Part shown: one piece after another, positions 16,891 through 56,008 of the stretch
Position numbering within the stretch: the stretch's first letter is position 1
How the letters are laid out: the number at the start of each line of letters is the position of its first letter
From: a bacterium
GTDB lineage: Bacteria; Patescibacteriota; Patescibacteriia; SG8-24
Length of the DNA stretch: 64,000 bases
Direction: 5' to 3'
Assembly (NCBI GenBank): GCA_023246195.1
Contig: JAHFIW010000002.1
Span: 4,259-68,258 of the forward strand
Made by a program: the position numbers and the translations under genes
Notes under the pieces: model-generated
Database searches by the model: none
The model's input: the letters and a program-made list of their open reading frames with translations, nothing else
What the model was told of the DNA's origin: nothing

Positions 16891-16949
16891 GTACGATGCC
16901 TCGCGTTCCGCTTCCGCAGGTGCGTCGCATAACGTATACTACTAACCGT

Positions 16950-18056: not shown

Positions 18057-18069
18057 CAAAATACGACAT

Positions 18070-19428: not shown

Positions 19429-19439
19429 GTGCAAGGTGC

Positions 19440-19988
19440 TTATTTAGTGATCGCGTACGTCGAGACAATTTGCGCGAGTGTCGCCCGGTAGTCATTCCAT
19501 GAGAAATTCTTAGCCGCATCTTTGTTCTTGGTGAAGGTCAGCACGACGTACTGGCCGCCCTTCTTGGTGACATAATAATCGGTAGCGGAGGAGTCGTCTT
19601 TGGCGGTATCAGAGGTATGGCAGAATGAGGAACCTTCAACTGAAATGGTTTCTGACTTTCCGTCAGCCGTGACGTAACAGCCGTCCTTGATGCTTGAGTT
19701 GCCGTCCTTGGCGAACGAGGCGCTCCACATGGGCGCATATCGGCCTGTCGTGGGCCACTTGAAGCCGTATCCGAGCGAGGCATTCGTGTAGGTCTTCCAC
19801 GTACCGTCAATTTTGGCAGTTGCCGGCGTCGATGCGTCTGCCGAGGAATTGACGTTTGCGGCAGACGAATCGCCGGGAAGTGCGATAGCTCCGGTATTCG
19901 TGCTGGTATCGGCCGGAACGTTGTTGCATCCGGCTCCGACGATGAGCAGGGCGGCAGTGAGTGAGAGCAGTATGTTGGTGGCGCGCAT
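19440..19988 (-). CDS. Hypothetical lipoprotein
   Basis: Start at MRATNILLSLTAALLIVGAGC (lipobox). Ser/Thr/Ala-rich linker then a globular domain. Confidence 0.5.
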   Translation of the reverse strand: MRATNILLSLTAALLIVGAGCNNVPADTSTNTGAIALPGDSSAANVNSSADASTPATAKIDGTWKTYTNASLGYGFKWPTTGRYAPMWSASFAKDGNSSIKDGCYVTADGKSETISVEGSSFCHTSDTAKDDSSATDYYVTKKGGQYVVLTFTKNKDAAKNFSWNDYRATLAQIVSTYAITK

Positions 19989-20105
19989 GGCGGTAGCCGG
20001 CGAATGTGAATAAGGGCGCGAGTGGTCGCATGGCGATAGTATAAAGAGCAGTGCGCCTTTCGACAATGCGGATTAAAAAAGAGACGCGATGCGTCTCCGT
20101 GCCGG

Positions 20106-32812: not shown

Positions 32813-32858
32813 GGCGGTACCGGTTTCGAGTTTCTGGCGGCAAAGGTATACTGTCGCA

Positions 32859-34532
32859 ATGAAGTGGTTTGCAAAAAAAAATGCACCCTGGAGATTCCCA
32901 GGCGCTGACTATCTCGGCGTCTTTTTGCTGGTTTCCGCCATCTACGGATTCGTCAACGCCTCGTCAAGTTTCCTCGATCCTGACTCGTTTTATCACGTGA
33001 AGATGGCGGAGTTGCTCATGCAGCGCGGAATCGTTCGCAACTTCACCTGGCTTCCCTTCACCACGCTGGCGCACGCCTTCGCCGACCATCATTTTTTGTA
33101 TCACGTGATACTCGTTCCGTTCATTGCTTTTTACGGTGCGTTCGTCGGCGCGAAGATAGCGACTGTCGTTTTGGCGGCGGCGGCGCTTACGGCTTTTTAC
33201 GGCGCATTGAAGGCTTACGGAAGCAAGTTGCCGTTCGCCTTTGCCATGATGCTGGCGACGTCATCGGCATTCATGTTTCGCATGAACCTCACTAAGACTT
33301 CCGCGGTGTCGGTGACGGTGCTGATGCTTGCGCTCATTGCCATCCGGCGTGACAGTTGGCGCAGCCTGTTCTTTCTTTCTTGGGTTTACGTGTTGATGTA
33401 CGGCGGCTGGCCGCTTATGGGCGTGCTCATCGGAGCATTTTTCGTCACCCGGGCCGTTGTCGATCGCCTCGTCGACAGGCACCCGCTGCATTCCTGGGGT
33501 AATGCCTGGTTTTGGCGCAGGCTGTTCGCATTGCGGCAAAATGCGCTGGCGGATTTTATCGCCGCCTCGGAGGTGCGACAGGCGACAGCGGTCATGGCCG
33601 GACTTGCCTGCGGCGTAGTCATTAATCCGTACTTTCCTGCCAATCTCCGTTTTTATTGGGAGCAGATTTGGCAGATCGCGGTGCTCAATTATCGCGATAA
33701 GATCGGTGTCGGGGCAGAGTGGTATCCATACCCGTTTCCGGCGTTTTACTCCGAAAACAGCGTCATATTTCTTTGCATCGCCATCTGCATAGTGTTGTTG
33801 CTGACGATGATCTTTTGGGATGATGTCGTAAAAAAGCACGTGCCGAAGGGGGATCGAAGTTCGCTTTCTTCCCGCGTGGCGCTTACCATGTTGGCGGTAT
33901 TTTTTCTGGTGATGACCATGCGCAGCCGCCGGCACGTGGAGTACTTCGCGCCGTTCGCGATGTTTGCCACGGCCCTGTTCTACACATCGATAGACTCGCA
34001 CATGGATTGGGCGGCACTTGGACGCAAGTTGCGCACGCTGCTCCCCGTTGCCGTGCGAGCGAAGATATCTTTTGCCAAATTGGCCGGCGTGTACGTTGTC
34101 GTGATGCTCACCTTCTTGTGCGCGCGCAACGTCGTGGGGACGCGCGACACTTTCAGCGGAGGCATTCCGTGGACGCGCTATGCCAAGGCGGCCGCGTGGA
34201 CGCGCGCGAACGTTCCCGCCAACGCCATTATCGTGCATAGCGACTGGGACGAGTTTCCGCCGTTATTTTATTACGATGACACTCATCGGTATATCTGCGG
34301 TCTCGACCCCACCTTCCTCTATCGGCAGGATCCCACGCGCTATTGGCTGTGGGTGAACGTCACCACCGGCAAGGTCGGAAACGACGTTGGCGAAAAGGTC
34401 CGCGACGGGCTTGGTTCTCGGTATCTCCTGGTCGACAGCCGTTACGACGAGTTTCGCAAGGAATTGGAACGCGACCCGTCTATTGAGCGCGTCTATCACG
34501 ATGACGACGCCTCGGTGTATGTCGTACGCTGA
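32859..34532 (+). CDS. Large polytopic membrane protein (putative GT-C-type glycosyltransferase / oligosaccharyl-transferase-like)
   Basis: ~557 aa, >10 predicted TM segments plus a C-terminal soluble domain. Sits in the glycosylation neighbourhood. Family assignment is inferred. Confidence 0.45.
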   Translation: MKWFAKKNAPWRFPGADYLGVFLLVSAIYGFVNASSSFLDPDSFYHVKMAELLMQRGIVRNFTWLPFTTLAHAFADHHFLYHVILVPFIAFYGAFVGAKIATVVLAAAALTAFYGALKAYGSKLPFAFAMMLATSSAFMFRMNLTKTSAVSVTVLMLALIAIRRDSWRSLFFLSWVYVLMYGGWPLMGVLIGAFFVTRAVVDRLVDRHPLHSWGNAWFWRRLFALRQNALADFIAASEVRQATAVMAGLACGVVINPYFPANLRFYWEQIWQIAVLNYRDKIGVGAEWYPYPFPAFYSENSVIFLCIAICIVLLLTMIFWDDVVKKHVPKGDRSSLSSRVALTMLAVFFLVMTMRSRRHVEYFAPFAMFATALFYTSIDSHMDWAALGRKLRTLLPVAVRAKISFAKLAGVYVVVMLTFLCARNVVGTRDTFSGGIPWTRYAKAAAWTRANVPANAIIVHSDWDEFPPLFYYDDTHRYICGLDPTFLYRQDPTRYWLWVNVTTGKVGNDVGEKVRDGLGSRYLLVDSRYDEFRKELERDPSIERVYHDDDASVYVVR

Positions 34533-40043: not shown

Positions 40044-41147
40044 ATGAGTGAAGAAGAGAAGGATACTGACAGCAAGATGGCTGACGCCGAGGAAGATTTG
40101 GCTGCGGCCGTTCTGCCGATACTGCAGAGTATCGTGGGATGGTCCGTAGACAAGTTTGCGGACATCAGGGCTGTCGACATCGCCCTCAGGGCGCTCTCGC
40201 CTGGCGTCATCCTGGCAAGCAACGGCCTGCCCAACTTCGTCGGCCTCATATCCTCGAAGCTTGGGCGCAAGCTGTTCACGTCGGACGTCGCGCGAGACCT
40301 GTTCAAGGACTCGCTTCTCGAGGCGGCACGCCACGTGACCGCCAAGGTGCAGGAGAAGGGCGGGATGAAGAACATCACCCCGCAGGAGTACGGCGACGCC
40401 GTCAAGGACGGCTTCAGGGCGGCGATGGAGAAGAAGTACGTCATCATCGACAGGCTTCTCCACTCTCCGAGCTGCGCGGGAATTCAGAGCCGACTCGCGA
40501 AGCCTCCGGCCGTCAACGTGGAGATCACTCTCCTCGAGGCCGAACAGCAGCACTTCATGCGCGCACCCTGCTGCTTCGACGGCGTGCAGGCGGACATCAA
40601 AGCTCAGGCCGCGGCACCCGCCAAGGCCGAAGCCTCGAGACTCCCGCCGCGCTCGCCGATGGAAGTCATCAACCGGGCAAAGCCCAAGGATCGCGTCGTG
40701 TTCTTCACGTGGCTCAAAGGCCTTCCGGCCGACGAACGCGTGAGGGTCGATGCATTTCTCAAACATCTTGATTCGGAGGAGGAGCTTCACGCGCTGCTCC
40801 ACGTGATCAAGGATGCGCCGGATCTCGTCTACGAGCTGCTGACGCTGCTCGAAAACAGCAACGGCTCGCATCGGACGGCACAGTATCTTCTGCTCTTCGG
40901 TCAGGCGATCGAGCGGCATTCGATGCAGGCACTCACGGTCTTGAAGGTCGGTCTCAAGGAGGCCGTCAACACGGGTCGTGCCTTCGACGCGAGCTTCGCT
41001 CCCGTCGCCAAGCGGCTTCGGGACAACGACGCCGGTGAAAATCCGCGCATCACCGTCGCGGTGCTGTGTAGCAGCAGAGCGCCGGAAAAAGAGGGCGTTC
41101 TCAAGGCGACTGCCCGCTTCGTGAAGTCCCTTTTCCTCATCTTCTAG
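40044..41147 (+). CDS. Hypothetical protein (ORFan, GC-rich block)
   Basis: 367 aa, ATG preceded by AGGAG. GC-rich third positions. The antisense 434-aa ORF (39930..41234) is judged spurious. Confidence 0.5.
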   Translation: MSEEEKDTDSKMADAEEDLAAAVLPILQSIVGWSVDKFADIRAVDIALRALSPGVILASNGLPNFVGLISSKLGRKLFTSDVARDLFKDSLLEAARHVTAKVQEKGGMKNITPQEYGDAVKDGFRAAMEKKYVIIDRLLHSPSCAGIQSRLAKPPAVNVEITLLEAEQQHFMRAPCCFDGVQADIKAQAAAPAKAEASRLPPRSPMEVINRAKPKDRVVFFTWLKGLPADERVRVDAFLKHLDSEEELHALLHVIKDAPDLVYELLTLLENSNGSHRTAQYLLLFGQAIERHSMQALTVLKVGLKEAVNTGRAFDASFAPVAKRLRDNDAGENPRITVAVLCSSRAPEKEGVLKATARFVKSLFLIF

Positions 41148-41234
41148 GTGGGGAATGGGCAGGAGACGGAGAGAATACGCTCTCCGTCTCCGAATGGATT
41201 TGCCAACGCTTACGACGAATACGGAGATTGACAA

Positions 41235-42326
41235 ATGGAAAATACGGAAGACAAGAAGACTGAAATCAAGTCTGAGACTCAGGCAGAGCCGGAGTCCGGC
41301 TCACACATCCTCAGCGTCATCGGTCTGCTCATCAAGGGTACGACTCGTGACATCGTCAACGCGTCCGAGAAGCGCCTCGAGTCCATGAAGAACCTCATCA
41401 TCGTCACCTTCGTCGCGCCCGTCGCGGCGTTGGTGACCGGCGTCATCATCGCCGCGAACTCCGACACCGTCGCCGGGGTCAACGCGGGCCGGTGGTTCAT
41501 CATGGTGGCGGGATTCCTCGCAACGCTGTTGTGCGGAGTCGTCCTCGTCCGTGCAAAGGCGTATGCCTACGTCGTCATCGGGTGCAGCAAGGCCGCCAAG
41601 GTCGCCCTGAACTTCATGCCGACGCTCGAGACCGAAGAAGTGAACAAGTACATGGTGTACTTCTACGGTATCATGGCGTGGATTGCGGGCGTCTGCATCT
41701 ACGCGCAGATCATTCCGGTCTGGCGTTCGGTCGGCACGGCGCTTGTCGTCGCTACGGCGCTGCTCGGTCTCGCCGCCGTCATGGCCGCACGTTGGTACGG
41801 CGGCAAATTCGCGAAGGGGACGCTACTCGTGCTCATGGTGGGCACGCTCGCCGTCTCGACGGTTCGTCTGGTGAGTCCGCGCCTTCTCAGCGCAATGGAC
41901 AACGCGAGCGATTACGCTTTGGGTACCGACGGCCGTACCGATGCCGAGAAGACGCTGCTCAAGAAGTACAACGAGGAGCTCGTCGGCATTCGCGCCCGCG
42001 CCGCCAATGAGTGCAACGGCAAGTACTGCAATGAAGGCGATGTCTCGCGGGTGAAGGAGTTGGAGAAGAACATCCATCTTCTCGAGACCGGTCAATACTG
42101 GAGCACGGAGGCGACTGTCGCCCCCGCACCCGCTGCGGTCAAAAACGGAGCCTCGACCGTGAAAACGGAAGCGGCGCCGGCCAAGGCCGAAACGACCTCG
42201 TCATCTCAGGCAGAAAAGAAGCCCCCGACGCGTTCGGTGTCGAAGGGCGCAGGAACCAACTTGTCCAAGGCCGGCGATCCGTTCGTCGCTTTGGACCAGT
42301 TCCCGGACATCAAGCCGGCCAAGTAA
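41235..42326 (+). CDS. Hypothetical polytopic membrane protein with Ala/Thr/Lys-rich C-terminal tail
   Basis: ~6 TM segments then a coiled/low-complexity tail. Co-directional with, and immediately after, 40044..41147. Confidence 0.5.
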   Translation: MENTEDKKTEIKSETQAEPESGSHILSVIGLLIKGTTRDIVNASEKRLESMKNLIIVTFVAPVAALVTGVIIAANSDTVAGVNAGRWFIMVAGFLATLLCGVVLVRAKAYAYVVIGCSKAAKVALNFMPTLETEEVNKYMVYFYGIMAWIAGVCIYAQIIPVWRSVGTALVVATALLGLAAVMAARWYGGKFAKGTLLVLMVGTLAVSTVRLVSPRLLSAMDNASDYALGTDGRTDAEKTLLKKYNEELVGIRARAANECNGKYCNEGDVSRVKELEKNIHLLETGQYWSTEATVAPAPAAVKNGASTVKTEAAPAKAETTSSSQAEKKPPTRSVSKGAGTNLSKAGDPFVALDQFPDIKPAK

Positions 42327-42558
42327 CGGCCGGTCACGCCACAACGAGGCTTCTCGTGTGTGGAACCCCGGTAGCATCTGCTATCGGGGTTTTTTTTGGC
42401 TTATTTTAGCTTAATTATATTGGCTTATTACAGCAAAAATATCGACCTGCCAGTCTTGACAAAATGGTCAAAAAATGCTAGAGTACTATGTTCAGCAAAA
42501 TAGTCATGCGGGATCAAACGCTGAACACTGGTTCCCTGACAACCCGAAGGAGTTCTCA

Positions 42559-43068
42559 ATGAAAATGTCATTCTCGATTGCGGCGCTCATCCTCGGCGGC
42601 CTTCTCAGTATGGGCTGCATGAATACGGCGTCCTTCAGCGCGAAGGATGGCGGCTACCAGGTCGCCGGGCGCTCAACCACCCCGGAGTACATGGCAGCCA
42701 CGCTCTCGATGAACCGAGCGCGTGAGATCAACGCCGAGACCTACCGCTCGGCGGTCGGCAGCGGCATGATGTACCCGTACGGCATGGTCGGACCGGTGGG
42801 CGACTACCGCTTCAACTACTGCCCGAACGGCATCTGCATGGCCCCGATCGCGCTCCCCGTCACGCCGGTGCCGACCATGTCCGCACCGTCGACCGTCCCG
42901 CCTCCCGACGCGACCCCGGCCCAAAAGCCGGTCTCGCGACAGGAGCTCGACGAAACCCAGAAGCGAGCAGACGAAGCTCGCGTTCGCGCCGACGCGGCGC
43001 TCAGCGTTCTGGCGGCGCTTCGTGCCAACAAGGGCGAAGCTGCCGATCCGAGCGCCAAGCAGCCCTAA
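42559..43068 (+). CDS. Hypothetical lipoprotein
   Basis: MKMSFSIAALILGGLLSMGC lipobox. RBS AAGGAG upstream. Confidence 0.5.
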   Translation: MKMSFSIAALILGGLLSMGCMNTASFSAKDGGYQVAGRSTTPEYMAATLSMNRAREINAETYRSAVGSGMMYPYGMVGPVGDYRFNYCPNGICMAPIALPVTPVPTMSAPSTVPPPDATPAQKPVSRQELDETQKRADEARVRADAALSVLAALRANKGEAADPSAKQP

Positions 43069-43128
43069 AAAGCTGCGACGTCACGTCAGACACGAAACCA
43101 TCCAACGAATAGAAGAAGAGGTCACTCA

Positions 43129-43644
43129 ATGAATAGCAAGCTCATTACGCTCGTCGCGATCCTCGTCACGTTCATCGTCACTGGCTGCGGCTCGTCGTTC
43201 CAGCAGATGCCGATGCAGGCAGCTGGCGACTACCAGATGGGCGCCTACGGCGTCGGCCCTCAGCAGATGATGGTCGGTCCGGTGGCCGTTCCTCCGAAGA
43301 ACGTCGGCTTTCTGAACGTCCCCGCACGGACCTGCCGCAGCGGACCGCTCGCGATCGAGTTCGTCAACGAAAGCGACAACTTCGTCGCCCTTCAGTTCGA
43401 CGGGCTCGACGTCGCGGTCGTCGGCGCACAAGGCCAACTGCCTTCGTTCGTCCCGCCGCACGCGTCGGTCTACACCTGCATGGACGAGCCTGGCCCGCAC
43501 TCCATCACCGGTGCCGAGTACACTCTCAGCGGAAGCCGAATGGTCCGACTGTTCGATCTTCGCTGGAACGGCATGATCGGCGCGCACGTCAACGGCTACG
43601 GGCATCACCTGGTGCGGCTCACCGGTTCCGGCGTCGAGATCTGA
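43129..43644 (+). CDS. Hypothetical lipoprotein
   Basis: MNSKLITLVAILVTFIVTGC lipobox. RBS GAAGAAGAGG. Confidence 0.55.
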   Translation: MNSKLITLVAILVTFIVTGCGSSFQQMPMQAAGDYQMGAYGVGPQQMMVGPVAVPPKNVGFLNVPARTCRSGPLAIEFVNESDNFVALQFDGLDVAVVGAQGQLPSFVPPHASVYTCMDEPGPHSITGAEYTLSGSRMVRLFDLRWNGMIGAHVNGYGHHLVRLTGSGVEI

Positions 43645-43727: not shown

Positions 43728-44132
43728 TTATGTCGTCGTGAGAGAGTTGGAGAGCGCGGTGATGACGAAGTTGGTGATGGCGTAAGCGGCAAAGATGAGG
43801 ACCATGCCGATGACCGCATTGGAAATCATCTTCTTGGCCTGCTTCACCTTCTCGTCGTTGCCTTGGGCGGTCATCCAGAGGAATCCGGCATAGATGATGA
43901 TGCAAACGAGGATAACACCGAGCAGTCCGAGAGCGGCACCGATGAGGTTGCCGATGAGCTTAGAGATATCATTCGTGCCGCCTGCATTGACGCCCGCCGA
44001 TGTGGCAGTAATGCCCGCGCTGGCCTTCATGTTATCAAGGCTGGTGGTCGCAAGGACGGCGAGAGGGGCGGAGATGCTGCCGATTGCGGCGAGCGATCCG
44101 GCGACGATGCTCTTTAAGGAAATCTTCTTCAT
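43728..44132 (-). CDS. TrbC/VirB2-like type IV secretion pilin family protein (CPR 'T4SS_pilin' type), paralog 1
   Basis: Signal peptide, then two TM helices flanking the conserved loop IYAGFLWMTAQGNDEKVKQAKK. Confidence 0.6.
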   Translation of the reverse strand: MKKISLKSIVAGSLAAIGSISAPLAVLATTSLDNMKASAGITATSAGVNAGGTNDISKLIGNLIGAALGLLGVILVCIIIYAGFLWMTAQGNDEKVKQAKKMISNAVIGMVLIFAAYAITNFVITALSNSLTTT

Positions 44133-44213
44133 AGATGAACTGGCTTAGTGACCAGATTGTGATTAATTAACGATTGATTCTCAGCAGTCCAGGTCATTGT
44201 GGTCGACCAGGTC

Positions 44214-44618
44214 TTACTTCGAAAGCGCTGTGCTTAGGGAACTAATAACGACATTCGTGATAGCGTATGAAGCAAATATTAGCACAAGTCCAACAACTGC
44301 GCCAGAGAGGAGCTTCTTGGCCTGCTTCACCTTCTCGTCGTTGCCTTGGGCGGTCATCCAGAGGAATCCGGCATAGATGACGAGGGCCACGAAGACCACG
44401 CCGAGCAGGCTGAGTGCGGCACCGATGAGGCTGCCGACAATCGTGGGGAGATCGGTTGCCGTTCCCCCGACGCCCGCGGCTCCCGCCGTCGCAGAGAGTC
44501 CGGAAATATCGCTTAAATTGGCTGATGGCGCGGCTAAAGCTTTGGCCGCAAAGAGCATTGAGGCGACGATTGTCCCAGATGTCGCGGCACCTTTAGTTGT
44601 CGTGCTTGAGATGCGCAT
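44214..44618 (-). CDS. TrbC/VirB2-like pilin family protein, paralog 2
   Basis: Same architecture. Shares a 68-bp perfectly identical stretch with paralog 1. Confidence 0.6.
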   Translation of the reverse strand: MRISSTTTKGAATSGTIVASMLFAAKALAAPSANLSDISGLSATAGAAGVGGTATDLPTIVGSLIGAALSLLGVVFVALVIYAGFLWMTAQGNDEKVKQAKKLLSGAVVGLVLIFASYAITNVVISSLSTALSK

Positions 44619-44730
44619 AGAATCTGCAGATATCCACACAGGTTACTTCAGACTTAATCCTACCTTTTTTTAGGGATTTTTACGACAAAAAATCCCCGCC
44701 CTCGGTTGAGGGCGGGGATCGTTTTTGGAA

Positions 44731-45102
44731 CTAGCTTGTTCCGTTGATGACGGAGCCAACCACGAACTGCGCGATGGCATAAGCCGACATGATGATGACG
44801 AGACCGATGATACCCGAAATGATGAGTTTCTTGGCCTCTCCGACCTTCTCTTCTGATCCACCGGCAGTCATCCACTTGAAGCCTCCGAGGAGGATGATGA
44901 CGACGGCGACGATGCCGAGCAAGCCCATAAACGCCTTGATGACGCTCGAGACCGTGCTGCGGACGTCTTGCGTGCCGAGACCGATGGCCGTGGCGTAGTT
45001 GAGGCCGAGGTCAACGCCCGCTGCGGAGGCGATGGCCGGGGCTGCAAATGCAGCGACGGTCAGTGCACCGGCTGCGATTTTCGTAATGGTTGCTTTGCGC
45101 AT
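44731..45102 (-). CDS. TrbC/VirB2-like pilin family protein, paralog 3
   Basis: LLGGFKWMTAGGSEEKVGEAKK variant of the loop motif. Signal peptide. Confidence 0.55.
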   Translation of the reverse strand: MRKATITKIAAGALTVAAFAAPAIASAAGVDLGLNYATAIGLGTQDVRSTVSSVIKAFMGLLGIVAVVIILLGGFKWMTAGGSEEKVGEAKKLIISGIIGLVIIMSAYAIAQFVVGSVINGTS

Positions 45103-45250
45103 AGCGCTAGTACTGGGTTTAAGCCACGTTTCGCGCCAGATTGGCGGCGTAGCAGGCCATGGGCGAAGGTTATCCCCATGTCCAATAAAAGACATCCATG
45201 TGGATGGATGTCTTTAGTATATCAGAGTTTTGCCTTATTGAGAACAGGCC

Positions 45251-45610
45251 TTATTTGCTTGCGGCGCCGAAGATGGCCACGTTGAGGACGAACTTCAGGA
45301 TCGCATACGAGCTGAAGCAGACGATGAGTCCGGTGACCGCATAGACCATGTTTTTCTTTGCGACCTTGATCTTATCTGCACTGCCGGCGGAAATCATCCA
45401 GGAGAATCCGCTCCAGATGAAGACCACTAATGCCAAGACGCCGAGAAGAGAAATGACGGCCCCGATGAGCCTGCCGATGACGGTCTCGATGGTCGTTGAG
45501 CCGAGCGGGTGAAGCGGGTCGACGGCAAGTGCCACGAACGGAACGGCGAGGATCGCGGTCGAGGAGATGACGGTATAAAGCGATGATCGGCGAATCGTGC
45601 TGTTTCGCAT
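45251..45610 (-). CDS. TrbC/VirB2-like pilin family protein, paralog 4
   Basis: VFIWSGFSWMISAGSADKIKVAKK variant motif. Signal peptide. Confidence 0.55.
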   Translation of the reverse strand: MRNSTIRRSSLYTVISSTAILAVPFVALAVDPLHPLGSTTIETVIGRLIGAVISLLGVLALVVFIWSGFSWMISAGSADKIKVAKKNMVYAVTGLIVCFSSYAILKFVLNVAIFGAASK

Positions 45611-45620
45611 AAGTGCTTGG

Positions 45621-46169
45621 TTAAGAAGATGCGGTTCCGAGAGCGGCGAACAGCGCGTTCAGGAGAATGAAGGAGCCGAAGATGACAAGGAGGCCGATGA
45701 CCGCCCACTTGAGGCTGTTGAGTCCCTCGGCGTACTTTTTTTCGTTGCCGCCTGCGGTGATCATCTTGAATCCGCCATAGACGAAGGCAAGGAGGGCGAA
45801 GCTGCCGGAGAGTCCCATCAAGAGATTGGTGGCGCGACCGACAAGTTGGCGGATGGTGATGTTGCCGAGCGGGTCAACGAGCATGGTCTTTGCGGGAGGC
45901 TTGGTTGCCGCCGCGGCGGCAGCGGCGGCGCTTGTGCACGATGCGTCTGGTTGGCAGAAGCATTGCTTGCCGCCGCAGGCGGAAGAGGTACAGTTCAATT
46001 TTGCCTCGCAATCAGCCTGGTCAGCGAAGCAGCCAGTGGCCGGCGCTTTCGGGTCACCAAAGTTGCATTTTACGGCAGCTAGGACAACCGCCGGCGCGAG
46101 GAACCAAACAATCGCGGTAATCGCGGCAACTTTACGGACGGTCACGGAAAACGGGCGGTTCGACGTCAT
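45621..46169 (-). CDS. TrbC/VirB2-like pilin family protein with N-terminal Cys-rich extracellular extension, paralog 5
   Basis: Cys-rich segment (CNFGDP..CFADQADCEAKLNCTSSACGGKQCFC) then FVYGGFKMITAGGNEKKYAEG pilin core. Confidence 0.5.
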   Translation of the reverse strand: MTSNRPFSVTVRKVAAITAIVWFLAPAVVLAAVKCNFGDPKAPATGCFADQADCEAKLNCTSSACGGKQCFCQPDASCTSAAAAAAAATKPPAKTMLVDPLGNITIRQLVGRATNLLMGLSGSFALLAFVYGGFKMITAGGNEKKYAEGLNSLKWAVIGLLVIFGSFILLNALFAALGTASS

Positions 46170-46180
46170 AGTGTTCGCGA

Positions 46181-46744
46181 TTATGGGGTGGGAGCAACGG
46201 GAACGGCTTCCTGTGCGGCGGCCTTGAGCTCGTCCGGCGTCAGCGGGATGCAGCATTGGCCGGCAGATCCACAGCCGCTGTAGACCGTGCTGCAGTCGCG
46301 CCCTTGAGTGGGGTCACTCATGCACTGATATCCAGACGGCGCCATATCGGTACAGGAAGTCGCTTTCACCTGCCCCTTGGTGAGCCGCAACTTGATGTAA
46401 TCGATGATGTATCCCGCGAGGAAGATGAGGATGATGCCGATGACCGCGTTAGTGAGAATGGTCTTGCCCTCCGAGACCTTTTTTTCTGCGCCGTTCGAGG
46501 TGATCATGGTGAAGCCTCCATAGACGAACATCAGCAGGGCGAAGCTACCAGTGACCGCGATGATGAGCGAGGCGACGTTGAGAAAGGTCTCTTCGATGCA
46601 GCCGAGACCCGGCGCGTTAACGCCCTGATTGGTGGCGCAGGGCGGGACGATGGTCGTGGCCAGTGCCGGCATGGCGGCGAAGGCGAAACTCGCGATCATC
46701 GCAACAGTGGCAATTATGGCGTAGGGTCGGTGGCTGTTGCGCAT
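46181..46744 (-). CDS. TrbC/VirB2-like pilin family protein with C-terminal Cys-rich extension, paralog 6
   Basis: MFVYGGFTMITSNGAEKKVSEGK pilin core, followed by a Cys-rich tail (CTDMAPSGYQCMSD..CSTVYSGCGSAGQCC). Confidence 0.5.
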   Translation of the reverse strand: MRNSHRPYAIIATVAMIASFAFAAMPALATTIVPPCATNQGVNAPGLGCIEETFLNVASLIIAVTGSFALLMFVYGGFTMITSNGAEKKVSEGKTILTNAVIGIILIFLAGYIIDYIKLRLTKGQVKATSCTDMAPSGYQCMSDPTQGRDCSTVYSGCGSAGQCCIPLTPDELKAAAQEAVPVAPTP

Positions 46745-46769: not shown

Positions 46770-48200
46770 TCACTTAATCGTTTGATTGACCTTAGAGGCG
46801 CCGAGCTCGAGGATCTTGGTGGGATCGGCATTGCCGGCGAGCATCTGACGAATCATGTCTTGGAACGCCTGCTCGGTAGCTACCGCGTCCGTTCCATGAT
46901 ACCAGCTTTTGGCTGCCGATTCTTGAGAGGCAAACACGTTCAGGTCAAGGTCTTGCAGTTGGTCGTTGACCAGGCTGCGCAGGGCAGCCGGCTGGTGCGT
47001 CTTTGCCAGGTAAGACTTCACGTTTTCCGGTTTTGCCATGAATTCCACGAAGTCCCAGGCCTCGTTTGGATTTTGTGTCTTGGAAGTGACCGCGTTTATC
47101 CAGTAGTTGGGATAGTAGATGGGCTTGTTGCCTTCGATCTGCGGGAAGGACGAGACGCCGAAGTTCAGCTTGGGGTTGGCGAGACGTATCTGCGCCATGT
47201 GGTAGGAATAGCCGAAGAAAAATGCGGTTTGGCCGTTCTCAAAGGCCTGCAATGAGTTCGGCATCTTATCGTTCCAGGTGTAGACCTCCTTCACCGGGTT
47301 GGCGAAGTCGGTGTAGAAAATGAGCGCTTCTGCTCCTGGAGGAAAGGGACGTCCCGCGAGCTCTGGCGGGTACCGGTCAAAGGTCACGGTTCCGGAGTCG
47401 TCGGTCATGTTCGCGCCGTTTTGCATCATGAGCAGGCTCAGCACGTCCGTACCGCGCTCCACGTTGTCGGCGGTACCCAGTGCCACGCCGGACTGGATGA
47501 TGGTGCCTGTCTGGTCCAGCTTGGTGATTTTTTTGACTTGGTCCTGAAAGGTTTTCCAGTCGCCTGCGGGTTGCGCGATGCCTGCGCGGTTGAGGAGGTC
47601 TTTGTTGTAGTAAAGTGCCATCGTGTCTACAGAGAGCGGCAGTCCGTAGATTTTCGGTATCAGCGGCATCTTGGGATCGGCTTGCGCGGTGAGCATCACG
47701 GCATCCTGCGAGACCACGTCAACGTAATCGTTGGCCAGCTGCTTGAGGGTGATGCCCGGATTGCTGTGGATCACCGTCACTGCCTGCTTTTGGATGGTGC
47801 CTTGGATTTCGCGGTAGGCCAGGGTCAGCGTCTGCGGTACCGGCATCAGCTCCGGCTGGAAACGATGCATCCATGTTGCCGGCAGGCTGACGATGTCCGG
47901 CCCCTGGTCTTCAGCGAGCGCGTTGAGGATCTGCTTTTCGTACTCGTCATAGGTCAGGCGCTTGAAGTCGAAGCTGACATTGTGGTGAATCGCCTGGTAA
48001 GCGGTGAACGCGTCACCGAACGAATCCGCATCGTCATAGACGCTCCAGAACTTGAGGGTGATGGGCTTGGTCTTTTGCGCCACCTGCGCATTAGGGAAAA
48101 GCGTGCAGCCGAATCCGCCAAGAACCAGCAGCGTAGCGAGACCTGCGAGCAAGGTGAGTGCGGAGAACCGCCGTGAGGAGTTGCGTAGCATATTGGTCAA
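46770..48200 (-). CDS. Extracellular solute-binding protein (SBP family 1, sugar-type) lipoprotein
   Basis: Lipobox LGGFGC. MalE-like two-lobe SBP length and motifs. No permease or ATPase adjacent. Confidence 0.8.
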   Translation of the reverse strand: MTNMLRNSSRRFSALTLLAGLATLLVLGGFGCTLFPNAQVAQKTKPITLKFWSVYDDADSFGDAFTAYQAIHHNVSFDFKRLTYDEYEKQILNALAEDQGPDIVSLPATWMHRFQPELMPVPQTLTLAYREIQGTIQKQAVTVIHSNPGITLKQLANDYVDVVSQDAVMLTAQADPKMPLIPKIYGLPLSVDTMALYYNKDLLNRAGIAQPAGDWKTFQDQVKKITKLDQTGTIIQSGVALGTADNVERGTDVLSLLMMQNGANMTDDSGTVTFDRYPPELAGRPFPPGAEALIFYTDFANPVKEVYTWNDKMPNSLQAFENGQTAFFFGYSYHMAQIRLANPKLNFGVSSFPQIEGNKPIYYPNYWINAVTSKTQNPNEAWDFVEFMAKPENVKSYLAKTHQPAALRSLVNDQLQDLDLNVFASQESAAKSWYHGTDAVATEQAFQDMIRQMLAGNADPTKILELGASKVNQTIK

Positions 48201-49093
48201 CGTTTTTTGCTCAATTTTCCCGCAGATACGGACTTGAGATAGCGAGTGAAGGCCCCGTCGGCGTTGGCTTCGGGATGACGCTGGGCGAAATGGACGGCGG
48301 CAATCATGAATTCCAGTTTGCTGCCGCAGTCAAAACGGATGCCTTCCACCACCTTGCCGTAGATGGGCTTGTTGTTGCTCAGGTGGGTGATGAAGGCGTC
48401 CGCCAGGCGAATCTCGCCGTCTTTGCCGGGTTTTTGGGTCTTAAGGAGATGCAGGATTTCCGGAGTGACCACGTAGCGGCCGACGGCAGCAAAGGTGGAC
48501 GGTGCCTTGTCGGCAGCGGGCTTCTCGATGAATCCGTTCAGCTCCATCACGTACTTGGAAATCTTCTTGCCGCCGGCGATGCCGTATTTGGAGACGTTCT
48601 TCTTGCCTACGTCGTACAGCGCGATGACCGGATCATGATAACGCTCGTAGGCGGCAATCAGCTGCGAGGTCACCGATACTTCAGCATCGAAGATGTCGTC
48701 TCCGAACATCACTACTACCGGCTCATCCGCGCCGATGAACGGCAGCGCGGAGAGAATGGCATGTCCGTCTCCGAGCGGCGCCTGCTGCCGGACGAAGGCG
48801 AACTTTGCCAGGTTGGAAATCTTCATCAGATTTGCGAGCTCCTTGGTCCTGCCCTTCGACGCCAGTCGCGATTCCAGTTCGGCGTTGCGATCAAAGTGGT
48901 CCTCGATGGCTCGCTTTTGCTGGCTTGTGACGAAAATGATCTCTTCGATGCCTGCGGCCACGGCTTCTTCGACCACGTATTGAATGGCAGGCTTGTCGAC
49001 GATGGTCAGCATTTCCTTTGGCTGTGCCTTCGTTGCGGGCAGGAAACGCGTTCCAAGGCCGGCGACGGGGATGATAGCTTTGCGGATGTTCAT
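48197..49093 (-). CDS. galU: UTP--glucose-1-phosphate uridylyltransferase
   Basis: AIIPVAGLGTRFLPATKAQPKEMLTIVDKPAIQYVVEEA canonical GalU N-terminus. Confidence 0.9.
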   Translation of the reverse strand: MNIRKAIIPVAGLGTRFLPATKAQPKEMLTIVDKPAIQYVVEEAVAAGIEEIIFVTSQQKRAIEDHFDRNAELESRLASKGRTKELANLMKISNLAKFAFVRQQAPLGDGHAILSALPFIGADEPVVVMFGDDIFDAEVSVTSQLIAAYERYHDPVIALYDVGKKNVSKYGIAGGKKISKYVMELNGFIEKPAADKAPSTFAAVGRYVVTPEILHLLKTQKPGKDGEIRLADAFITHLSNNKPIYGKVVEGIRFDCGSKLEFMIAAVHFAQRHPEANADGAFTRYLKSVSAGKLSKKR

Positions 49094-49195
49094 AGCCTCA
49101 CAAGTATACGGAAAACGGAGCATTCCGAAAAGGCCGCGTAAGTACAAAAAAGCGGCAGCCATCGGCCGCCGCCCGTTCACTGATGTTCGTCAATT

Positions 49196-50674
49196 TTAGC
49201 GGAACAGTACGGTTTCGTTTACCGAGCTTACGGCCTGAGCCACGATTGGCTGGTATTCCGGCGCTAAGAAGGTGGGATACGTCTCAATCATCAGGTTGAA
49301 GGCGGCTTCCACCTTGCCGTAGTCGGTGCCCTTGTACCAGCTTTTTGCGGTGAGCACTTGTCCTGCGAAGGGGGCAATGTCGGGATCGGTAAGCTGCGAT
49401 CCGATGAGCCCGCGCAATGCCGTGGGGCGCTTCGTTGCCGTGAGGAACGTCCCCACCTGATCGGGGCCGGTGATGAACTGAAGGAAGTCCCAGGCTTCGT
49501 CGGGGGCAAGGGTCTTCTTGGAGACCACCTCGACCGGATAGTGCAGCACGTTCACGGGGTTGCTGGTATCGACTTGCGGCAGCGGCGCGACTCCGAAGTC
49601 GATCTTTGCGCTGCGGTCGCGGATCTTGGCCGCGTCTGAGGGGTAGCCGAAGTAGAAAGCGGTCTTGCCGGCGATGAAGGCGTCGAGCGATTGCGGCATT
49701 TGGGCGTTCCAGGAGTAGTTGCTGGAAGTGGGGATGGCAAAGCTCTGATAGAAGATCAGCGCTTCTATGCCGGGCGGAAACTGCTTGCCTTGGGTCGCAG
49801 GCGTGAAATTGGCAAAATTCGCGTAGCCGCTGTCGTCGGCCATCATCGCGCCGTTCTGCCACATGATGGCCGACAAGATGTCGACGTTGTTCATCACGTT
49901 CTTGCCGAGGCCGAGGGCTGCGCCTGACTGCTTGATGACCTTGGGTGCGTCTGGTGCGGGGACGTTCGCGGGGGCGGCGTTGACGTTGGCCGCATTCACG
50001 TTTGCGGCGGCGGGGGCCGGCGTGGTGTCGAAGATGGTCAGTTTGGCGGCATCAGCCTGCACGTCTTGCCAGGTTACCGGCGGTTTATCGATGCTGCCGC
50101 GTTTGAGGATGTCGCGATTGTAAAAAAGTGCCAGCGTGTCGGCGGAGAGCGGCAGCCCCAGAATGTGACTGGTGGGCGCGGTTCCCGGCTTGTCTGTGAC
50201 GGAGATGATGAGGTCTTTGGTGATGCCTTCCACGTAGCGGTTGGTGAAGTCCAGGATGCTCATGGTCGGCTGCTTCTGCTTGACCGTGACGATCTGCTTT
50301 TGCGCGTTGACCTGCTGTGTGGCCACAGTCGTCTCCTTGGGCATCGGCAGGAGTTTCGGCGTCCACTCGCCCAGCCAGGTGTTGGGGACACTGAAGATGT
50401 CCGGTCCCTTGTTCAGCGCGAAAGCTTCGAGCAAGGTGCGGTCGTAGTCTTCCTCTCGTTGCGTGGTCACGATGACATTCACGTTGGGGTGCAGCTTTTC
50501 GTACGCGGCTATCGGCGCGTCGAGCGCGGACGGGTCATCCTGAATGCGCCAGTATTGAAGGGTGACGGGCTTGAGCTGCACGGATGAGTTGCCTCCCAAC
50601 AGGGGGCAGCCCGCACCGACGAGCAACAATGATGAGACAAAGGCGGCAAGAGGGAGGAATTTCCGCATATTCAT
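49196..50674 (-). CDS. Extracellular solute-binding protein (SBP family 1) lipoprotein, paralog of 46770..48200
   Basis: Lipobox LLVGAGC. Shares motifs with the neighbouring SBP (ALIFY..FA, AFYFGY). Confidence 0.8.
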   Translation of the reverse strand: MNMRKFLPLAAFVSSLLLVGAGCPLLGGNSSVQLKPVTLQYWRIQDDPSALDAPIAAYEKLHPNVNVIVTTQREEDYDRTLLEAFALNKGPDIFSVPNTWLGEWTPKLLPMPKETTVATQQVNAQKQIVTVKQKQPTMSILDFTNRYVEGITKDLIISVTDKPGTAPTSHILGLPLSADTLALFYNRDILKRGSIDKPPVTWQDVQADAAKLTIFDTTPAPAAANVNAANVNAAPANVPAPDAPKVIKQSGAALGLGKNVMNNVDILSAIMWQNGAMMADDSGYANFANFTPATQGKQFPPGIEALIFYQSFAIPTSSNYSWNAQMPQSLDAFIAGKTAFYFGYPSDAAKIRDRSAKIDFGVAPLPQVDTSNPVNVLHYPVEVVSKKTLAPDEAWDFLQFITGPDQVGTFLTATKRPTALRGLIGSQLTDPDIAPFAGQVLTAKSWYKGTDYGKVEAAFNLMIETYPTFLAPEYQPIVAQAVSSVNETVLFR

Positions 50675-50775
50675 GGAGTAAATGTGAGGAAAGTATAGCA
50701 CACATGGTTAAAGGGGTCTTTTCGGAACTGCGGGCGAGTGGTATCGTCGGTGTTATGTGCTATTGAAATGGAACC

Positions 50776-51456
50776 ATGATGACTTTACGAATTGCCCACA
50801 GAGGAGCGCCGTACTTTGCACCCGAGAACTCTCTCCAGGGCTTTGAGAAGGCCCTCTCGTTTTCGCCGGACATGGTCGAAATGGATCTGCGGTCATGCCG
50901 CGGCGGCCATGCCGTGGTCATTCACGACAAGACCATTAATCGTGTCACCAACGGCAAGGGAAAGGTGTCCAAGCTGACATTGGAAAAATTGCGCACGTTC
51001 AGGCTGGCTAACGGTGAGCCGATTCCCACGTTTGCCGAGGCGCTGGAGGTGCTGCGCGGGCGTGCTGATATCAAGATCGACGTGAAGTCTCGCGGAATGG
51101 AAGGCGTAGTGGTGCGTGCGCTTCGCCGCATGGGCATCCTGCGTCAGACTATTGTCATCGCCTATGGCCGCAAGTCGCTGCTTGCTTTCAGAAATGAGGG
51201 AGGGGCGTCATTGCGCACGGAGTTGGGTGGCGTATACGCCCCGCACCGACGTCTTCGGGCCGTTTCCTCGGCGTTGAAATCCGGAGCGACCATCATCTCG
51301 GCGAATCACACCTTGGTGAACGCCAAGTTCGTGGAAAAGTGCCGCAGCAGAGGCTTGGACATTCATGCCTGGACCGTCAACACCAAGCAGGAAGCCGATC
51401 GGCTGCGAGAACTTGGCGTGGCCGCGATTGCGACGGACCGGTTGGACATCATCTAG
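50776..51456 (+). CDS. Glycerophosphodiester phosphodiesterase family protein
   Basis: HRGAPYFAPENSLQGF ... EMDLR ... VIHD GDPD catalytic motifs. Confidence 0.85.
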   Translation: MMTLRIAHRGAPYFAPENSLQGFEKALSFSPDMVEMDLRSCRGGHAVVIHDKTINRVTNGKGKVSKLTLEKLRTFRLANGEPIPTFAEALEVLRGRADIKIDVKSRGMEGVVVRALRRMGILRQTIVIAYGRKSLLAFRNEGGASLRTELGGVYAPHRRLRAVSSALKSGATIISANHTLVNAKFVEKCRSRGLDIHAWTVNTKQEADRLRELGVAAIATDRLDII

Positions 51457-53235: not shown

Positions 53236-54570
53236 CTACGTCACCCACGGTGATATCGGCTCGCCTGTCACGACCGCCTTGGCCTTATCAAGCAGCGATG
53301 CTCGCGATGCGGCTTGGACGCTCTCGGTGATGCCGACGATAATCCAAAAGAGGAAAGCCAGGTCGTTTTTGAAGTAGGGGACGTCGACTAGGCCGTGTAT
53401 CAAGAGGGTGATCATCACGGCGGCGTTGGTGGCGACTATCCAACCGTTCTTATGCAGTTTCCACGATTTTCGGAAGAAGCGGACGATGATCCAGATGAAC
53501 GCTCCGAGTCCGAGCATGCCGGTCTCGCTCCAGAAGTTTACGAGGATGTCGTGCGGGTATTGGAAAATTTCGATCCAGTAGTGCGTGTGATACGGCGCGA
53601 TGCGCGTGGGGTAGCCGGAAAGTCCGGCGCCGAAGACGGGATTGTCCTTGAACATGTTGGCCGTCTCGCTCCAGATGATGCCGCGCACGGAAGACGAGTC
53701 TTCGCGGAAGCCGACGATTCGCGCAAAGAAGTTGGTGGCCGGAAGGTAGAGCATCACCACCATGCAGGCGGCAATGATGGCGCCGAGCGTCCATGCGCGC
53801 AGCTTTTTGTCGAACAGGCCGAGTGCGGTGATACCGACGGCGATGCCGATCATGCCGCCCTTGGAAACCGCGAAGACAACGCCGCAGGTGCCAAGCAACG
53901 CAGCTGCCGCCGGAAGGATCGCCAGCAACCGGCGCGTTGAGCGCTTTGCGCGGAGCAACGCTAACGACCAGCCGGCCATTAGCGTCACGACGGGAGCGGA
54001 CAGCAGCGCGATGGCGTTGGGGAAGCCGAAGAAGCTCGTGGCTCGCCGAGTGGCGGCAGCGGCCCATGCGGGATTGGGGATGCCGAAGCCCGTGATTTTT
54101 TGATAGATGGCCGTGACGCCGATGACCGATATGCAGGTTCCGAGCGTTGCGATCATCCAGATACCGTGTTTTTCGCGCTTCACCGTGTGCACGAACATCG
54201 GGAAGAACAGGATCGGTTCAAGTATGTACGCGCGCCACAGGCCGAGCGCAGCGCGAAGATCGGATGATACAAACACGCTGATAGTGGCGGCCGTGACGAA
54301 GATCGTCAGCGGCACTGCCCACTCCTCCAGCGCATCCCACGCGCCGGGCTTCTTTGCGTCCGGGGCATCCATGAAATACCACGCGACGAACAGTTCCCAA
54401 AAAAATACTTCGAGCAGCGTGGAAGGAAGCGTGCCGATGCCGAGCGGCAGCGAAAGCCGTACGAGGTATACGGGAAGCAGTCCGCAGAACGCGGCGAGCG
54501 CCGCTTCGCGCCGCCAGATGGCGAGCGCGAGGAACAGCATGGCGAGAATGGCGGCGGGTACGAGAGGCAT
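53236..54570 (-). CDS. O-antigen ligase/polymerase-like (Wzy_C / WaaL family) polytopic membrane protein
   Basis: ~12 TM segments with a periplasmic loop carrying the RxxxW.E..H-type motif region. Confidence 0.65.
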   Translation of the reverse strand: MPLVPAAILAMLFLALAIWRREAALAAFCGLLPVYLVRLSLPLGIGTLPSTLLEVFFWELFVAWYFMDAPDAKKPGAWDALEEWAVPLTIFVTAATISVFVSSDLRAALGLWRAYILEPILFFPMFVHTVKREKHGIWMIATLGTCISVIGVTAIYQKITGFGIPNPAWAAAATRRATSFFGFPNAIALLSAPVVTLMAGWSLALLRAKRSTRRLLAILPAAAALLGTCGVVFAVSKGGMIGIAVGITALGLFDKKLRAWTLGAIIAACMVVMLYLPATNFFARIVGFREDSSSVRGIIWSETANMFKDNPVFGAGLSGYPTRIAPYHTHYWIEIFQYPHDILVNFWSETGMLGLGAFIWIIVRFFRKSWKLHKNGWIVATNAAVMITLLIHGLVDVPYFKNDLAFLFWIIVGITESVQAASRASLLDKAKAVVTGEPISPWVT

Positions 54571-54583
54571 AGGTGCAGACGCG

Positions 54584-56008
54584 TTACTGTACGGCAGTTT
54601 TTTTGAACGAAGCCAACGTTTCTTTGGTAACCGCCCCGAACGCGATCACCAGCGCCACGTAAACGCCTCCGCCGATGGCCACGCGTACCAGCACGTTGAG
54701 CGGCGCTGCCAGCCATACCGAGACGGCCATGAGCGCGCTTGCCGCCGCGGCTTTCATGAACACGCCAAGCTTCGGCATGTGGCGCAACGTCGAAAGCACT
54801 GCCGCCGCCGTGATGAGCGCGATGAAACATTCGGAGAACACCGTCACCCAGGCCGCGCCGGTCGCGCCGTAGCGGGGGATGGCGTAGGCGTAGAGTGCCA
54901 GGGACAGCGCGGCGTCGACGGCATAGGCCCCGATCATCTTCTTCTGCATGCCCATGGCAACCACGGAGTAGCCGAACAGCGCGCTCCAGAACACTGCGGC
55001 GCCGGCAATCATCAGGATGCCGAGGTAGAGTCCGGAATTCGCGAACCTGCCGCCTCCGACGAAGCTCATCAGGTCGCGCGCCACCACGAAGGTGCCGAAT
55101 GCAAGTGGAAGCGCTATCAGCGAAAGCGCGTCGAATGCCTTGCTGAGCTTGCGTCTGAACTCTTCATGATTGCCTGCCGCCCAGGCGCGAGCCAAGATCG
55201 GCAGCATCAGCCCCATGAAGATCGTCGGTATGACGGTGATGACGTCGAGCACCTTGTAGGCCGCGCCATAGAGGCCGACTTCGGCTTGCGGGCGCAACAG
55301 CGAGAGGATGACCACGTCGCCCTTGAGATAGACGAGATTAAAGGCGATGGATAAGCCGATGGGCCACGACTCCTTGATGATGGTGCGCCACATCGCCATG
55401 TCGAAGGCGAGTTCCAACTTGGTCAGTTTGCGCGCGTAGTAAAATGAAATGCCGAATTGCACCGCATTACCGGCAACGAGCGAAGCGATGACCGGTAAAA
55501 GCCCCGCGCCCGTCACGGAGGCGAAGACGACTCCCGCGAGCAGGGTCACTCGTCCACAGGTGTCGGCAAGGGCTGAACGGCTCGTGGCAAGATGTTTTTG
55601 AAAGATGCCGGTGAGCACTTGCGACACCGTCATGGTGAAGAATGACAGCGCCCCGACGGCAATGGCCGTCTTCACCAGTGGCGGATACGGAAAAAGCAGC
55701 CCGACGATAGGTGCCAGACCGAAGAACACCATGGCTGAGAACAGGCGCAGGGTGAGCACGTTCGATGCCACGCGGCCTTCGTTATGACTGTCGTCGGAAA
55801 TCATCCGGGCCATGGTAAGCGTGAGCCCGAAGTCCACCAAGATGCCGAAAAACTGCAAAAAAGAAACGGTCGTCGTATAGGCGCCGAAGCCGTCGGTCCC
55901 GAGGCTGCGCATCATCACCGCAATGGTCACGACGCCAAGAAGATTGCCGGCAAATCTGCCCGCAATCTGGACGATGGTGTTGCTTGCGACTGCCCGTGCC
56001 TGCGACAT
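54584..56008 (-). CDS. wzx: Oligosaccharide flippase (Wzx / MOP superfamily polysaccharide biosynthesis protein)
   Basis: 474 aa, 12-14 TM. N-terminal VQIAGRF..LGVVTIAVMMRSLG typical of PST family. Confidence 0.8.
   Translation of the reverse strand: MSQARAVASNTIVQIAGRFAGNLLGVVTIAVMMRSLGTDGFGAYTTTVSFLQFFGILVDFGLTLTMARMISDDSHNEGRVASNVLTLRLFSAMVFFGLAPIVGLLFPYPPLVKTAIAVGALSFFTMTVSQVLTGIFQKHLATSRSALADTCGRVTLLAGVVFASVTGAGLLPVIASLVAGNAVQFGISFYYARKLTKLELAFDMAMWRTIIKESWPIGLSIAFNLVYLKGDVVILSLLRPQAEVGLYGAAYKVLDVITVIPTIFMGLMLPILARAWAAGNHEEFRRKLSKAFDALSLIALPLAFGTFVVARDLMSFVGGGRFANSGLYLGILMIAGAAVFWSALFGYSVVAMGMQKKMIGAYAVDAALSLALYAYAIPRYGATGAAWVTVFSECFIALITAAAVLSTLRHMPKLGVFMKAAAASALMAVSVWLAAPLNVLVRVAIGGGVYVALVIAFGAVTKETLASFKKTAVQ

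Follow-up and report, generated by a model that had tools for sequence, protein, structure and literature searches.

Six VirB2-like pilin paralogs in a conserved GalU-SBP-pilin cassette of a patescibacterial genome

The 64-kb stretch of the patescibacterial assembly GCA_023246195.1 analyzed here (contig JAHFIW010000002.1, positions 4,259 to 68,258; hereafter the window) carries at 43728-46744 six successive minus-strand open reading frames (ORFs), all of which belong to the T4SS_pilin family PF18895 and which are designated p6 to p1 in 5' to 3' order. Comparison with related loci showed these genes to be old, positionally conserved, and differentiated paralogs, not merely a recent amplification. 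They are part of a cassette of conserved order, in which a GalU-like gene and a gene for a sugar-type solute-binding protein (SBP) lipoprotein are followed by Cys-rich pilins, a core pilin with a stem-loop, and plain pilins. We read the locus, at a probability of roughly 0.65, as a pilin array of the candidate phyla radiation (CPR) comprising six PF18895 pilins of the VirB2/TrbC superfamily, which would be polymerized by a type IV secretion system (T4SS) encoded elsewhere in the genome. The array is a new example of the VirB2-like arrays already published for Patescibacteria; the cassette, which is not linked to virB4, and its internal order may be undescribed so far, and are regularities at the level of gene context and not a new kind of system.

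Six tandem genes of the PF18895 family

In a Pfam profile search, all six proteins passed the gathering cut-off of PF18895 (26.6 bits) with scores of 35.0-50.2 bits, which establishes their membership in this family. The first gene of the array, p6 (46181-46744; 187 amino acids (aa); 35.0 bits), encodes a signal peptide, two cysteines, a hydrophobic hairpin, and a C-terminal domain with six cysteines. It is followed by p5 (45621-46169; 182 aa; 47.4 bits), in which an insert with eight cysteines and a poly-Ala/Pro linker lie between the signal peptide and the hairpin. The other four genes are the plain p4 (45251-45610; 119 aa; 42.5 bits), the conserved "core" pilin p3 (44731-45102; 123 aa), which is the best family match at 50.2 bits, and the plain p2 (44214-44618; 134 aa; 37.2 bits) and p1 (43728-44132; 134 aa; 45.8 bits), the latter closing the array. 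Six consecutive same-strand pilin paralogs had been claimed in the original prediction, which was made from the sequence alone, and they are borne out here at lengths of 119-187 aa. Intergenic gaps across the six genes measure 10-172 nt, with p6, p5, and p4 spaced by just 10-11 nt, and no obvious Shine-Dalgarno motifs were found 5' of the pilin starts.

Gene starts were taken from the calls on a 99.98% identical ENA metagenome contig, on which the same six genes are 187, 182, 119, 123, 114, and 134 aa long, with the exception of p2. As publicly called (114 aa), this protein has a truncated signal peptide and no basic N-terminus; with the start moved to an in-frame ATG at 44618 (MRISS...), the protein is 134 aa long and agrees with its paralogs, which start with MK or MR.

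By hydropathy, all six proteins have a basic N-terminus and a signal-peptide-like hydrophobic segment ending in an AxA-like site, then a variable stretch, and then two strongly hydrophobic segments with a short K-rich loop between them. The AlphaFold2 (AF2) model of p6 contains one long helical hairpin (residues 47-82 and 87-124; mean predicted local distance difference test score (pLDDT) 80), and that of p3 a hairpin of residues 44-78 and 84-122 with pLDDT above 90, in keeping with the signal peptide, two transmembrane helices, and loop that had been predicted. The common core of the six-paralog alignment contains invariant G, GF, G, K, and G positions.

Membership of the six pilins in the VirB2 superfamily, also part of the original prediction, is supported by profile comparison. 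In the profile searches it had suggested as a check, PF18895 was passed by six of six proteins, p3 and p4 scored just below the cut-off of the TrbC/VirB2 family PF04956 (scores given below), and a precomputed PF04956 match is present in many p3 homologs. A third profile, NF045849, describes the Mbov_0395 family of pilin-like conjugal transfer proteins from integrative and conjugative elements (ICEs) of Mycoplasma; its cut-off of 40 bits was passed by p1 (50.8 bits) and p2 (40.6 bits), with p3 (39.6 bits), p4 (36.0 bits), and p5 (30.7 bits) below it and no match for p6.

The pilin homologs are named "pilin" by NCBI. They and the homologs of the adjacent SBP all come from metagenome-assembled genomes (MAGs) of Patescibacteria, some of them under placeholder titles, and their lineages are Uhrbacteria, Magasanikbacteria, Falkowbacteria, Veblenbacteria, Parcubacteria, and "Patescibacteria group". 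The ORFans 3' of the array are common to Uhrbacteria MAGs, and the host of the array is probably related to Uhrbacteria, within Patescibacteria, judging from these sequence relationships. Typical Patescibacteria cassettes were also seen in MAGs titled "uncultured Gammaproteobacteria bacterium" (loci L002, L005, L007, and many others) and in some titled Binatia, Eisenbacteria, or Kapaibacterium; these organism names look like placeholders or mis-binning.

Positional conservation and differentiation of the paralogs

A scan of GTDB representatives with an alignment of p1-p3 as the query yielded 80 related loci with identities of at most 58%, for which flanks of up to 10 kb per side were analyzed; all 80 come from Patescibacteria MAGs or from MAGs under placeholder titles. 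Arrays of 5-12 tandem pilin genes on one strand (median 7) are present at 61 of these loci. Strong orthologs of the p3 type occur in 60 of the 80, mostly directly after the Cys-rich genes, and more than 100 database clusters show 62-94% identity to p3. Orthologs of the p6 type stand at array position 1 in 11/11 strongly assigned loci and those of the p5 type at position 2 in 4/4 loci. More generally, long members with at least six cysteines come first or second in 40 of the 42 arrays that have any.

For comparison of rates, the fully syntenic relative GCA_964491475.1 was used, in which all six genes have positional orthologs, with dS values of about 0.6-2.1 across the genes compared; the paralogs are therefore old. 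These dS values are near saturation, so that the ranking by dN is what can be relied on and dN/dS ratios are rough. At the conserved end, p3 retains 90% aa identity (dN 0.06), comparable to the GalU-like protein (91%, dN 0.05), followed by p1 (78%, dN 0.13) and the SBP (76%, dN 0.15); p2, p4, p5, and p6 share 53-62% identity with their counterparts (dN 0.30-0.47). Differing roles of the six paralogs are implied by this evolution.

A sigma-70-like promoter match lies 5' of p3 on the same strand (45216-45244; TTCTCA-17-TATACT with an extended TG), as a match to the consensus only, and promoter matches were not enriched over shuffled sequences for the region as a whole. Directly 3' of p3 is a terminator-like stem-loop (44691-44720, minus strand; 13-bp stem with nine GC pairs, then a T-run). 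Such stem-loops 3' of core-type pilins are kept across loci, with a median minimum free energy of -17.4 kcal/mol vs -6.3 kcal/mol after other pilins (Mann-Whitney p = 5e-14). Given its conservation, the promoter-like match 5', and the stem-loop 3', p3 is likely to be the abundant, major structural subunit.

The Cys-rich extensions that had been noted for the two 5' genes were confirmed, at eight cysteines each: in p5 all eight lie on the N-terminal side, in the insert that separates the signal peptide from helix 1, and in p6 two precede helix 1 and six are in the C-terminal tail. All eight cysteines of p6 are invariant or nearly so across 19 homologs, residues 131-179 of its C-terminus form a small alpha/beta domain in the AF2 model, and its best non-self database match has 59% identity. 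In the closest relative, the ortholog of p5 (L085:12065-12556) has a Pro/Ala-rich linker without cysteines in place of the 8-Cys insert; the p5 ectodomain has therefore been swapped between close relatives. In F- and T-pili both pilin termini are outside and the loop points toward the cytoplasm or the pilus lumen. The Cys modules of p5 and p6 are predicted to lie in outward-facing parts, and the 5' Cys-rich genes look like specialized minor subunits.

A gene conversion tract shared by p1 and p2

An exact 68-nt repeat on the minus strand, far above chance expectation, links p1 (43830-43897) and p2 (44313-44380) at an offset of 483, and encodes IIYAGFLWMTAQGNDEKVKQAKK, which comprises the end of helix 1 and the loop. 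The repeat and its p1 coordinates had been predicted correctly; the second copy had been placed at 44303-44370. No synonymous difference occurs in the 22 same-residue codons within the tract, and 20 of 31 such codons outside it differ synonymously; none of 100,000 codon shuffles gave a run of 68.

The syntenic relative holds positional orthologs of both p1 and p2, and p1 of the window is closer to p1 of the relative (78% identity) than to p2 of the window (57%), from which it follows that the duplication predates the split of the two lineages and that the tract arose afterwards, by gene conversion. In the relative, p1 and p2 share at most 25 identical nt, so the long identical tract is limited to the lineage of the window. 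Of the two origins that had been offered for the repeat, recent duplication or gene conversion, the comparison with the syntenic relative thus upholds conversion in the lineage of the window and rejects recent duplication.

A conserved GalU-SBP-pilin cassette

Upstream of p6, by 25 nt and on the same strand, lies a gene for an SBP_bac_1 lipoprotein-like solute-binding protein of 473 aa (46770-48191; PF01547 and PF13416), preceded by a gene for a GalU-like NTP_transferase (48197-49093, minus strand; PF00483), the start of which is uncertain, as the ORF extends to 49180. The original prediction had listed "lone SBP lipoproteins" as a flank of the array. One of them is more than an incidental neighbor: an SBP gene (PF01547) is immediately 5' of the pilin genes on the same strand in 51 of the 80 loci, with a median gap of at most 9 nt, and 37 of those 51 have the order NTP_transferase, SBP, pilin. 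The reciprocal check, starting from three distant SBP homologs of 49-52% identity chosen by the length of their contigs alone, found 3/3 preceded by an NTP_transferase gene and followed by 6-9 pilin genes. By sequence, the closest solved relatives of the SBP in the PDB are proteins that bind sugars and oligosaccharides. Flanks outside the cassette vary by lineage. No literature linking SBPs with pilin arrays in Patescibacteria was found in the searchable library, which is incomplete.

A terminator-like hairpin (49150-49174, minus strand; 11-bp stem with eight GC pairs, T-run) separates the GalU-like gene from a second SBP_bac_1 paralog (49196-50701, minus strand; PF01547), and is likely to delimit the GalU-SBP-pilin transcription unit on its 5' side. 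The order SBP, NTP_transferase, SBP, pilin recurs in L004, L007, L013, L015, L085, and L087, the second SBP being limited to the cassettes of the closest relatives.

Two further observations concern the surroundings of the cassette. Genes for a Wzy_C (O-antigen-ligase-like) protein and a Polysacc_synt flippase, found in the window at 53236-56008 (minus strand), adjoin the cassette in 18 and 13 loci, respectively. Among the Wzy_C proteins of other bacteria are pilin O-glycosyltransferases, and by analogy glycosylation of the pilins via Wzy_C is a possibility. In L085 (5514-7491), a pair of FtsX and ABC_tran (MacB/Lol-like) genes is divergent from the upstream SBP gene, at a place where the window has only a GDPD gene (50776-51456).

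Weighing the pilin reading and its alternatives

Under the favored reading, which draws on VirB2 and TraA pilins and on the T4SS of Patescibacteria (PMC12102498, PMC10633639, PMC12857230), the pilins would be exported by the Sec pathway and cleaved by signal peptidase. Their hairpins would form a membrane pool with the basic loop cytoplasmic and both termini outside, from which they would be extracted and polymerized by a monoderm-type T4SS that is driven by VirB4 and has its genes elsewhere in the genome. In such a filament p3 would be the major subunit; p5 and p6 would be minor or tip adhesive subunits for host-cell contact, with their presumably disulfide-bonded Cys-rich modules exposed on the outside; and the SBP lipoprotein may serve as a glycan-recognizing accessory.

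Several results weigh against this reading. None of the six proteins reached the PF04956 cut-off of 27.9 bits (p4 26.1, p3 24.2, and p6 12 bits; nothing for the others), and no solved structure was matched by sequence using the family profile. Pfam scans of about 55 ORFs in the window detected housekeeping and envelope genes and no VirB4, VirB6, VirD4, relaxase, ABC permease, or ABC ATPase, which agrees with the earlier observation that VirB4, VirB6, and VirD4 genes are missing there. The flanks of the 80 related arrays, up to 10 kb per side, yielded no virB4 or other T4SS machinery either. For this search all flank ORFs were clustered and representatives scanned, together with each ORF of at least 450 aa with a Walker A motif; it returned only housekeeping genes (SMC, HisRS, LeuRS, IF-2, FtsH, PEP synthase, PBP1, YchF, and signal peptidase I), and a PilB-type T2SSE ATPase was present at one locus of the 80. 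Because no machinery is linked to the arrays, their connection to a T4SS rests on family homology and on published surveys. In relatives, moreover, the PF18895 hairpin is fused to proteins of more than 3,000 aa, which are unfit as the repeat of a helical filament, so that the hairpin can also be a membrane anchor. Pili have not been observed in this clade.

The polytopic ORFan at 41235-42326, considered as a VirB6, had no Pfam or NCBIfam match, and its conservation is limited to the nearest relatives. Fold searches add nothing, since any helical hairpin resembles hundreds of unrelated proteins; Foldseek placed an archaeal conjugation pilus at rank 2 with an E of 2.3.

The most serious rival takes the hairpin mainly as a module for membrane anchoring and display that does not polymerize, so that the short variable or Cys-rich ectodomains and the SBP would make up a T4SS-independent surface recognition layer. 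It would account for the arrays never adjoining virB4 in this clade, for the hairpin forming the N-terminus of the giant proteins, which have TIG, Big_5, and LVIVD adhesin-type domains, for extensions occurring at either terminus when both are predicted to face outward, and for the tight coupling of the array to a lipoprotein gene. We nevertheless consider it unlikely, since the family is homologous to conjugative pilins, since the strongly conserved, undecorated p3 of 123 aa with its terminator-like hairpin resembles a bulk structural subunit, and since a related array of Saccharibacteria lies within an essential T4SS cluster (PMC10633639). Another explanation, proposed in PMC12102498, is that such arrays serve chiefly for antigenic or host-range variation, with recently amplified, interchangeable major pilins that are shuffled by gene conversion and of which one or few are used at once. 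Here the age of the paralogs, attested by positional orthologs of all six at dS values of about 0.6-2.1, and the fixed positions of the p6, p5, and p3 types across many genomes speak against it. The conversion tract joining p1 and p2 speaks for it, but homogenizes the conserved loop and not the variable exposed parts. Also in its favor are the swapped p5 ectodomain and the finding that p2, p4, p5, and p6 evolve 2-3 times faster than the neighboring genes; gene-wide dN/dS values of 0.1-0.32, rough as they are with dS near saturation, gave no sign of gene-wide positive selection, and we regard this explanation as improbable.

That the six are unrelated two-helix membrane proteins, pilin-like by hydrophobicity only and in fact holin-like or small transporter subunits working with the SBP, appears very improbable. 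Weak matches to transporter families, the adjoining SBP gene, and a few JGI names of "permease small subunit" for homologs would point in that direction, but every transporter match is far under its own cut-off and all six proteins pass PF18895. They also have signal peptides of the cleavable type, a feature missing from holins and permease subunits. An ABC importer with the SBP found no support, as permease (BPD_transp_1) and ATPase genes are absent from the window and are not among the recurrent neighbors of the 80 loci. A phage origin, or a holin-like identity, the example named in advance of what would overturn the pilin assignment, likewise found no support: PHROGs gave no match for five proteins, one match of unknown function for p5 (E 0.0065), and no holin match, and there is no lysis or phage context.

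Beyond the polymerization of the six pilins by a distant T4SS, which we continue to favor, a bolder proposal concerns the cassette as a whole, which has no virB4 within 10 kb in any of the sampled Uhrbacteria-, Magasanikbacteria-, and Falkowbacteria-type lineages. It might be a distinct, undescribed surface-filament or adhesion module, in which an SBP-fold lipoprotein acts as the glycan-recognizing partner of the pilins (as tip adhesin, host-sugar sensor, or chaperone) and the hairpin is a general mount for disulfide-rich or giant adhesin domains, possibly without a canonical T4SS. We offer this tentatively, as a conceivable though rather doubtful extension.

Relation to known pilin systems

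Quinonero-Coronel et al. (2025, PMC12102498) reported VirB2-like arrays of 2-11 genes in 383 Patescibacteria assemblies and VirB4 in 2,417 of 3,035 such assemblies (80%). Their definition of an array is 2-11 tandem PF18895 or PF04956 genes, or with one gene between, and the six genes described here are contiguous. The window array resembles the published ones in its PF18895 assignment, its tandem same-strand arrangement, its number within the 2-11 range, its monoderm CPR host, and the divergence of its paralogs, which share 27-59% identity with p1. Because of the conversion tract, the identity between p1 and p2, at 57-59%, slightly exceeds the highest published value of 54% (PMC12102498). The survey was restricted to neighborhoods of at most 20 coding sequences from virB4, found arrays most abundant in Microgenomatia and Saccharimonadia, and makes no mention of solute-binding proteins or cysteine-rich pilins (PMC12102498). 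In Ca. Southlakia epibionticum, a six-pilin array within a T4SS cluster is essential (Wang et al. 2023, PMC10633639; PMC12857230). Unlike that array, the one in the window and its 80 relatives are not linked to virB4. As further differences, the window array follows GalU-like and SBP lipoprotein genes and has a fixed order of Cys-rich genes first, then the conserved core, then plain pilins.

With the TrbC/VirB2 pilins of PF04956, such as the T-pilin and the F-pilin TraA, the six proteins share a long signal peptide, a hydrophobic hairpin, and a short basic loop. They differ from the Gram-negative members in their scores below the PF04956 cut-off, in having no adjacent virB3, virB4, or relaxase gene and a host without an outer membrane, and in that some members have Cys-rich ectodomains and some relatives giant extensions. 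The Mbov_0395 family is likewise made up of small hairpin proteins from wall-less or monoderm hosts, and the T4SS of Mycoplasma ICEs is of the MPF-FATA class, within which the VirB4 clade of Patescibacteria falls (PMC12102498). However, the Mycoplasma gene is single and lies inside the ICE transfer cluster, and here there are six chromosomal paralogs without nearby transfer genes. So far as PMC12102498 cites them, the amplified VirB2 genes of Bartonella and Anaplasma are also tandem pilin paralogs with gene conversion between copies; they are interpreted as antigenic-variation sets of animal pathogens, in contrast to the ancient and ordered array of the window, one member of which is under strong purifying selection.

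Neighboring genes and other loci

The block flanking the array 3' had been described as a GC-rich group of ORFan and lipoprotein genes. Lipobox-like N-termini were indeed read from the sequence of two ORFs (42475-43068 and 43129-43644); the GC excess is marginal (0.60-0.61 vs about 0.58). These two and the polytopic ORF at 41235-42326 are among four plus-strand ORFs without a family match at 40044-43644, which converge on the array and are conserved only in its nearest relatives (L004, L005, L007, L015, L017, L085, and L087). Farther away, a 710-aa ORF (32400-34532, plus strand) without a Pfam or NCBIfam match has homologs in 12 related loci, always beside GT2 glycosyltransferase and DUF2079 genes and near pilin arrays, and is probably an uncharacterized envelope-glycan protein. 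A tyrosine recombinase gene (Phage_integrase; 16896-17897, plus strand) adjoins tRNA-Arg and tRNA-His genes (17982-18145), after which come minus-strand ORFs without a Pfam match (18428-20066); this region could be the edge of an integrated element.

A second type of locus was encountered in Patescibacteria (L009, L035, L046, L050, L055, L057, L069, L076, L077, and L080; for example L035:6014-16423), usually 3' of signal peptidase I and HisRS genes. It encodes a protein of 600-820 aa and a giant protein of 2,800 to more than 3,470 aa with 100-170 cysteines, each starting with a PF18895 hairpin; in the giant protein of L035, residues 65-128 form the hairpin, with TIG, Big_5, and LVIVD domains after it. 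In a Parcubacteria array, L088, the precomputed Pfam list of the first pilin gene (9473-10648) consists of DUF559 and PF18895, and a GIY-YIG gene (14685-14984) interrupts the array; these may be homing-endonuclease-type insertions in pilin arrays.

Implications

Patescibacteria account for much of the uncultured diversity of bacteria and apparently live attached to host cells, a lifestyle for which the only member amenable to genetics requires a VirB2-like pilin array. The window adds no new kind of element to this picture, but a clean example from a different lineage. The regularities across the 80 loci point to a probable major subunit, of the p3 type, and to probable adhesive minor subunits, encoded by the Cys-rich 5' genes. 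They point as well to a sugar-binding lipoprotein and a UDP-sugar enzyme as constant operon partners, and to a pilin module that is able to bear giant adhesin domains. If the link to the SBP is functional, it would hint at how these cells recognize host surfaces.

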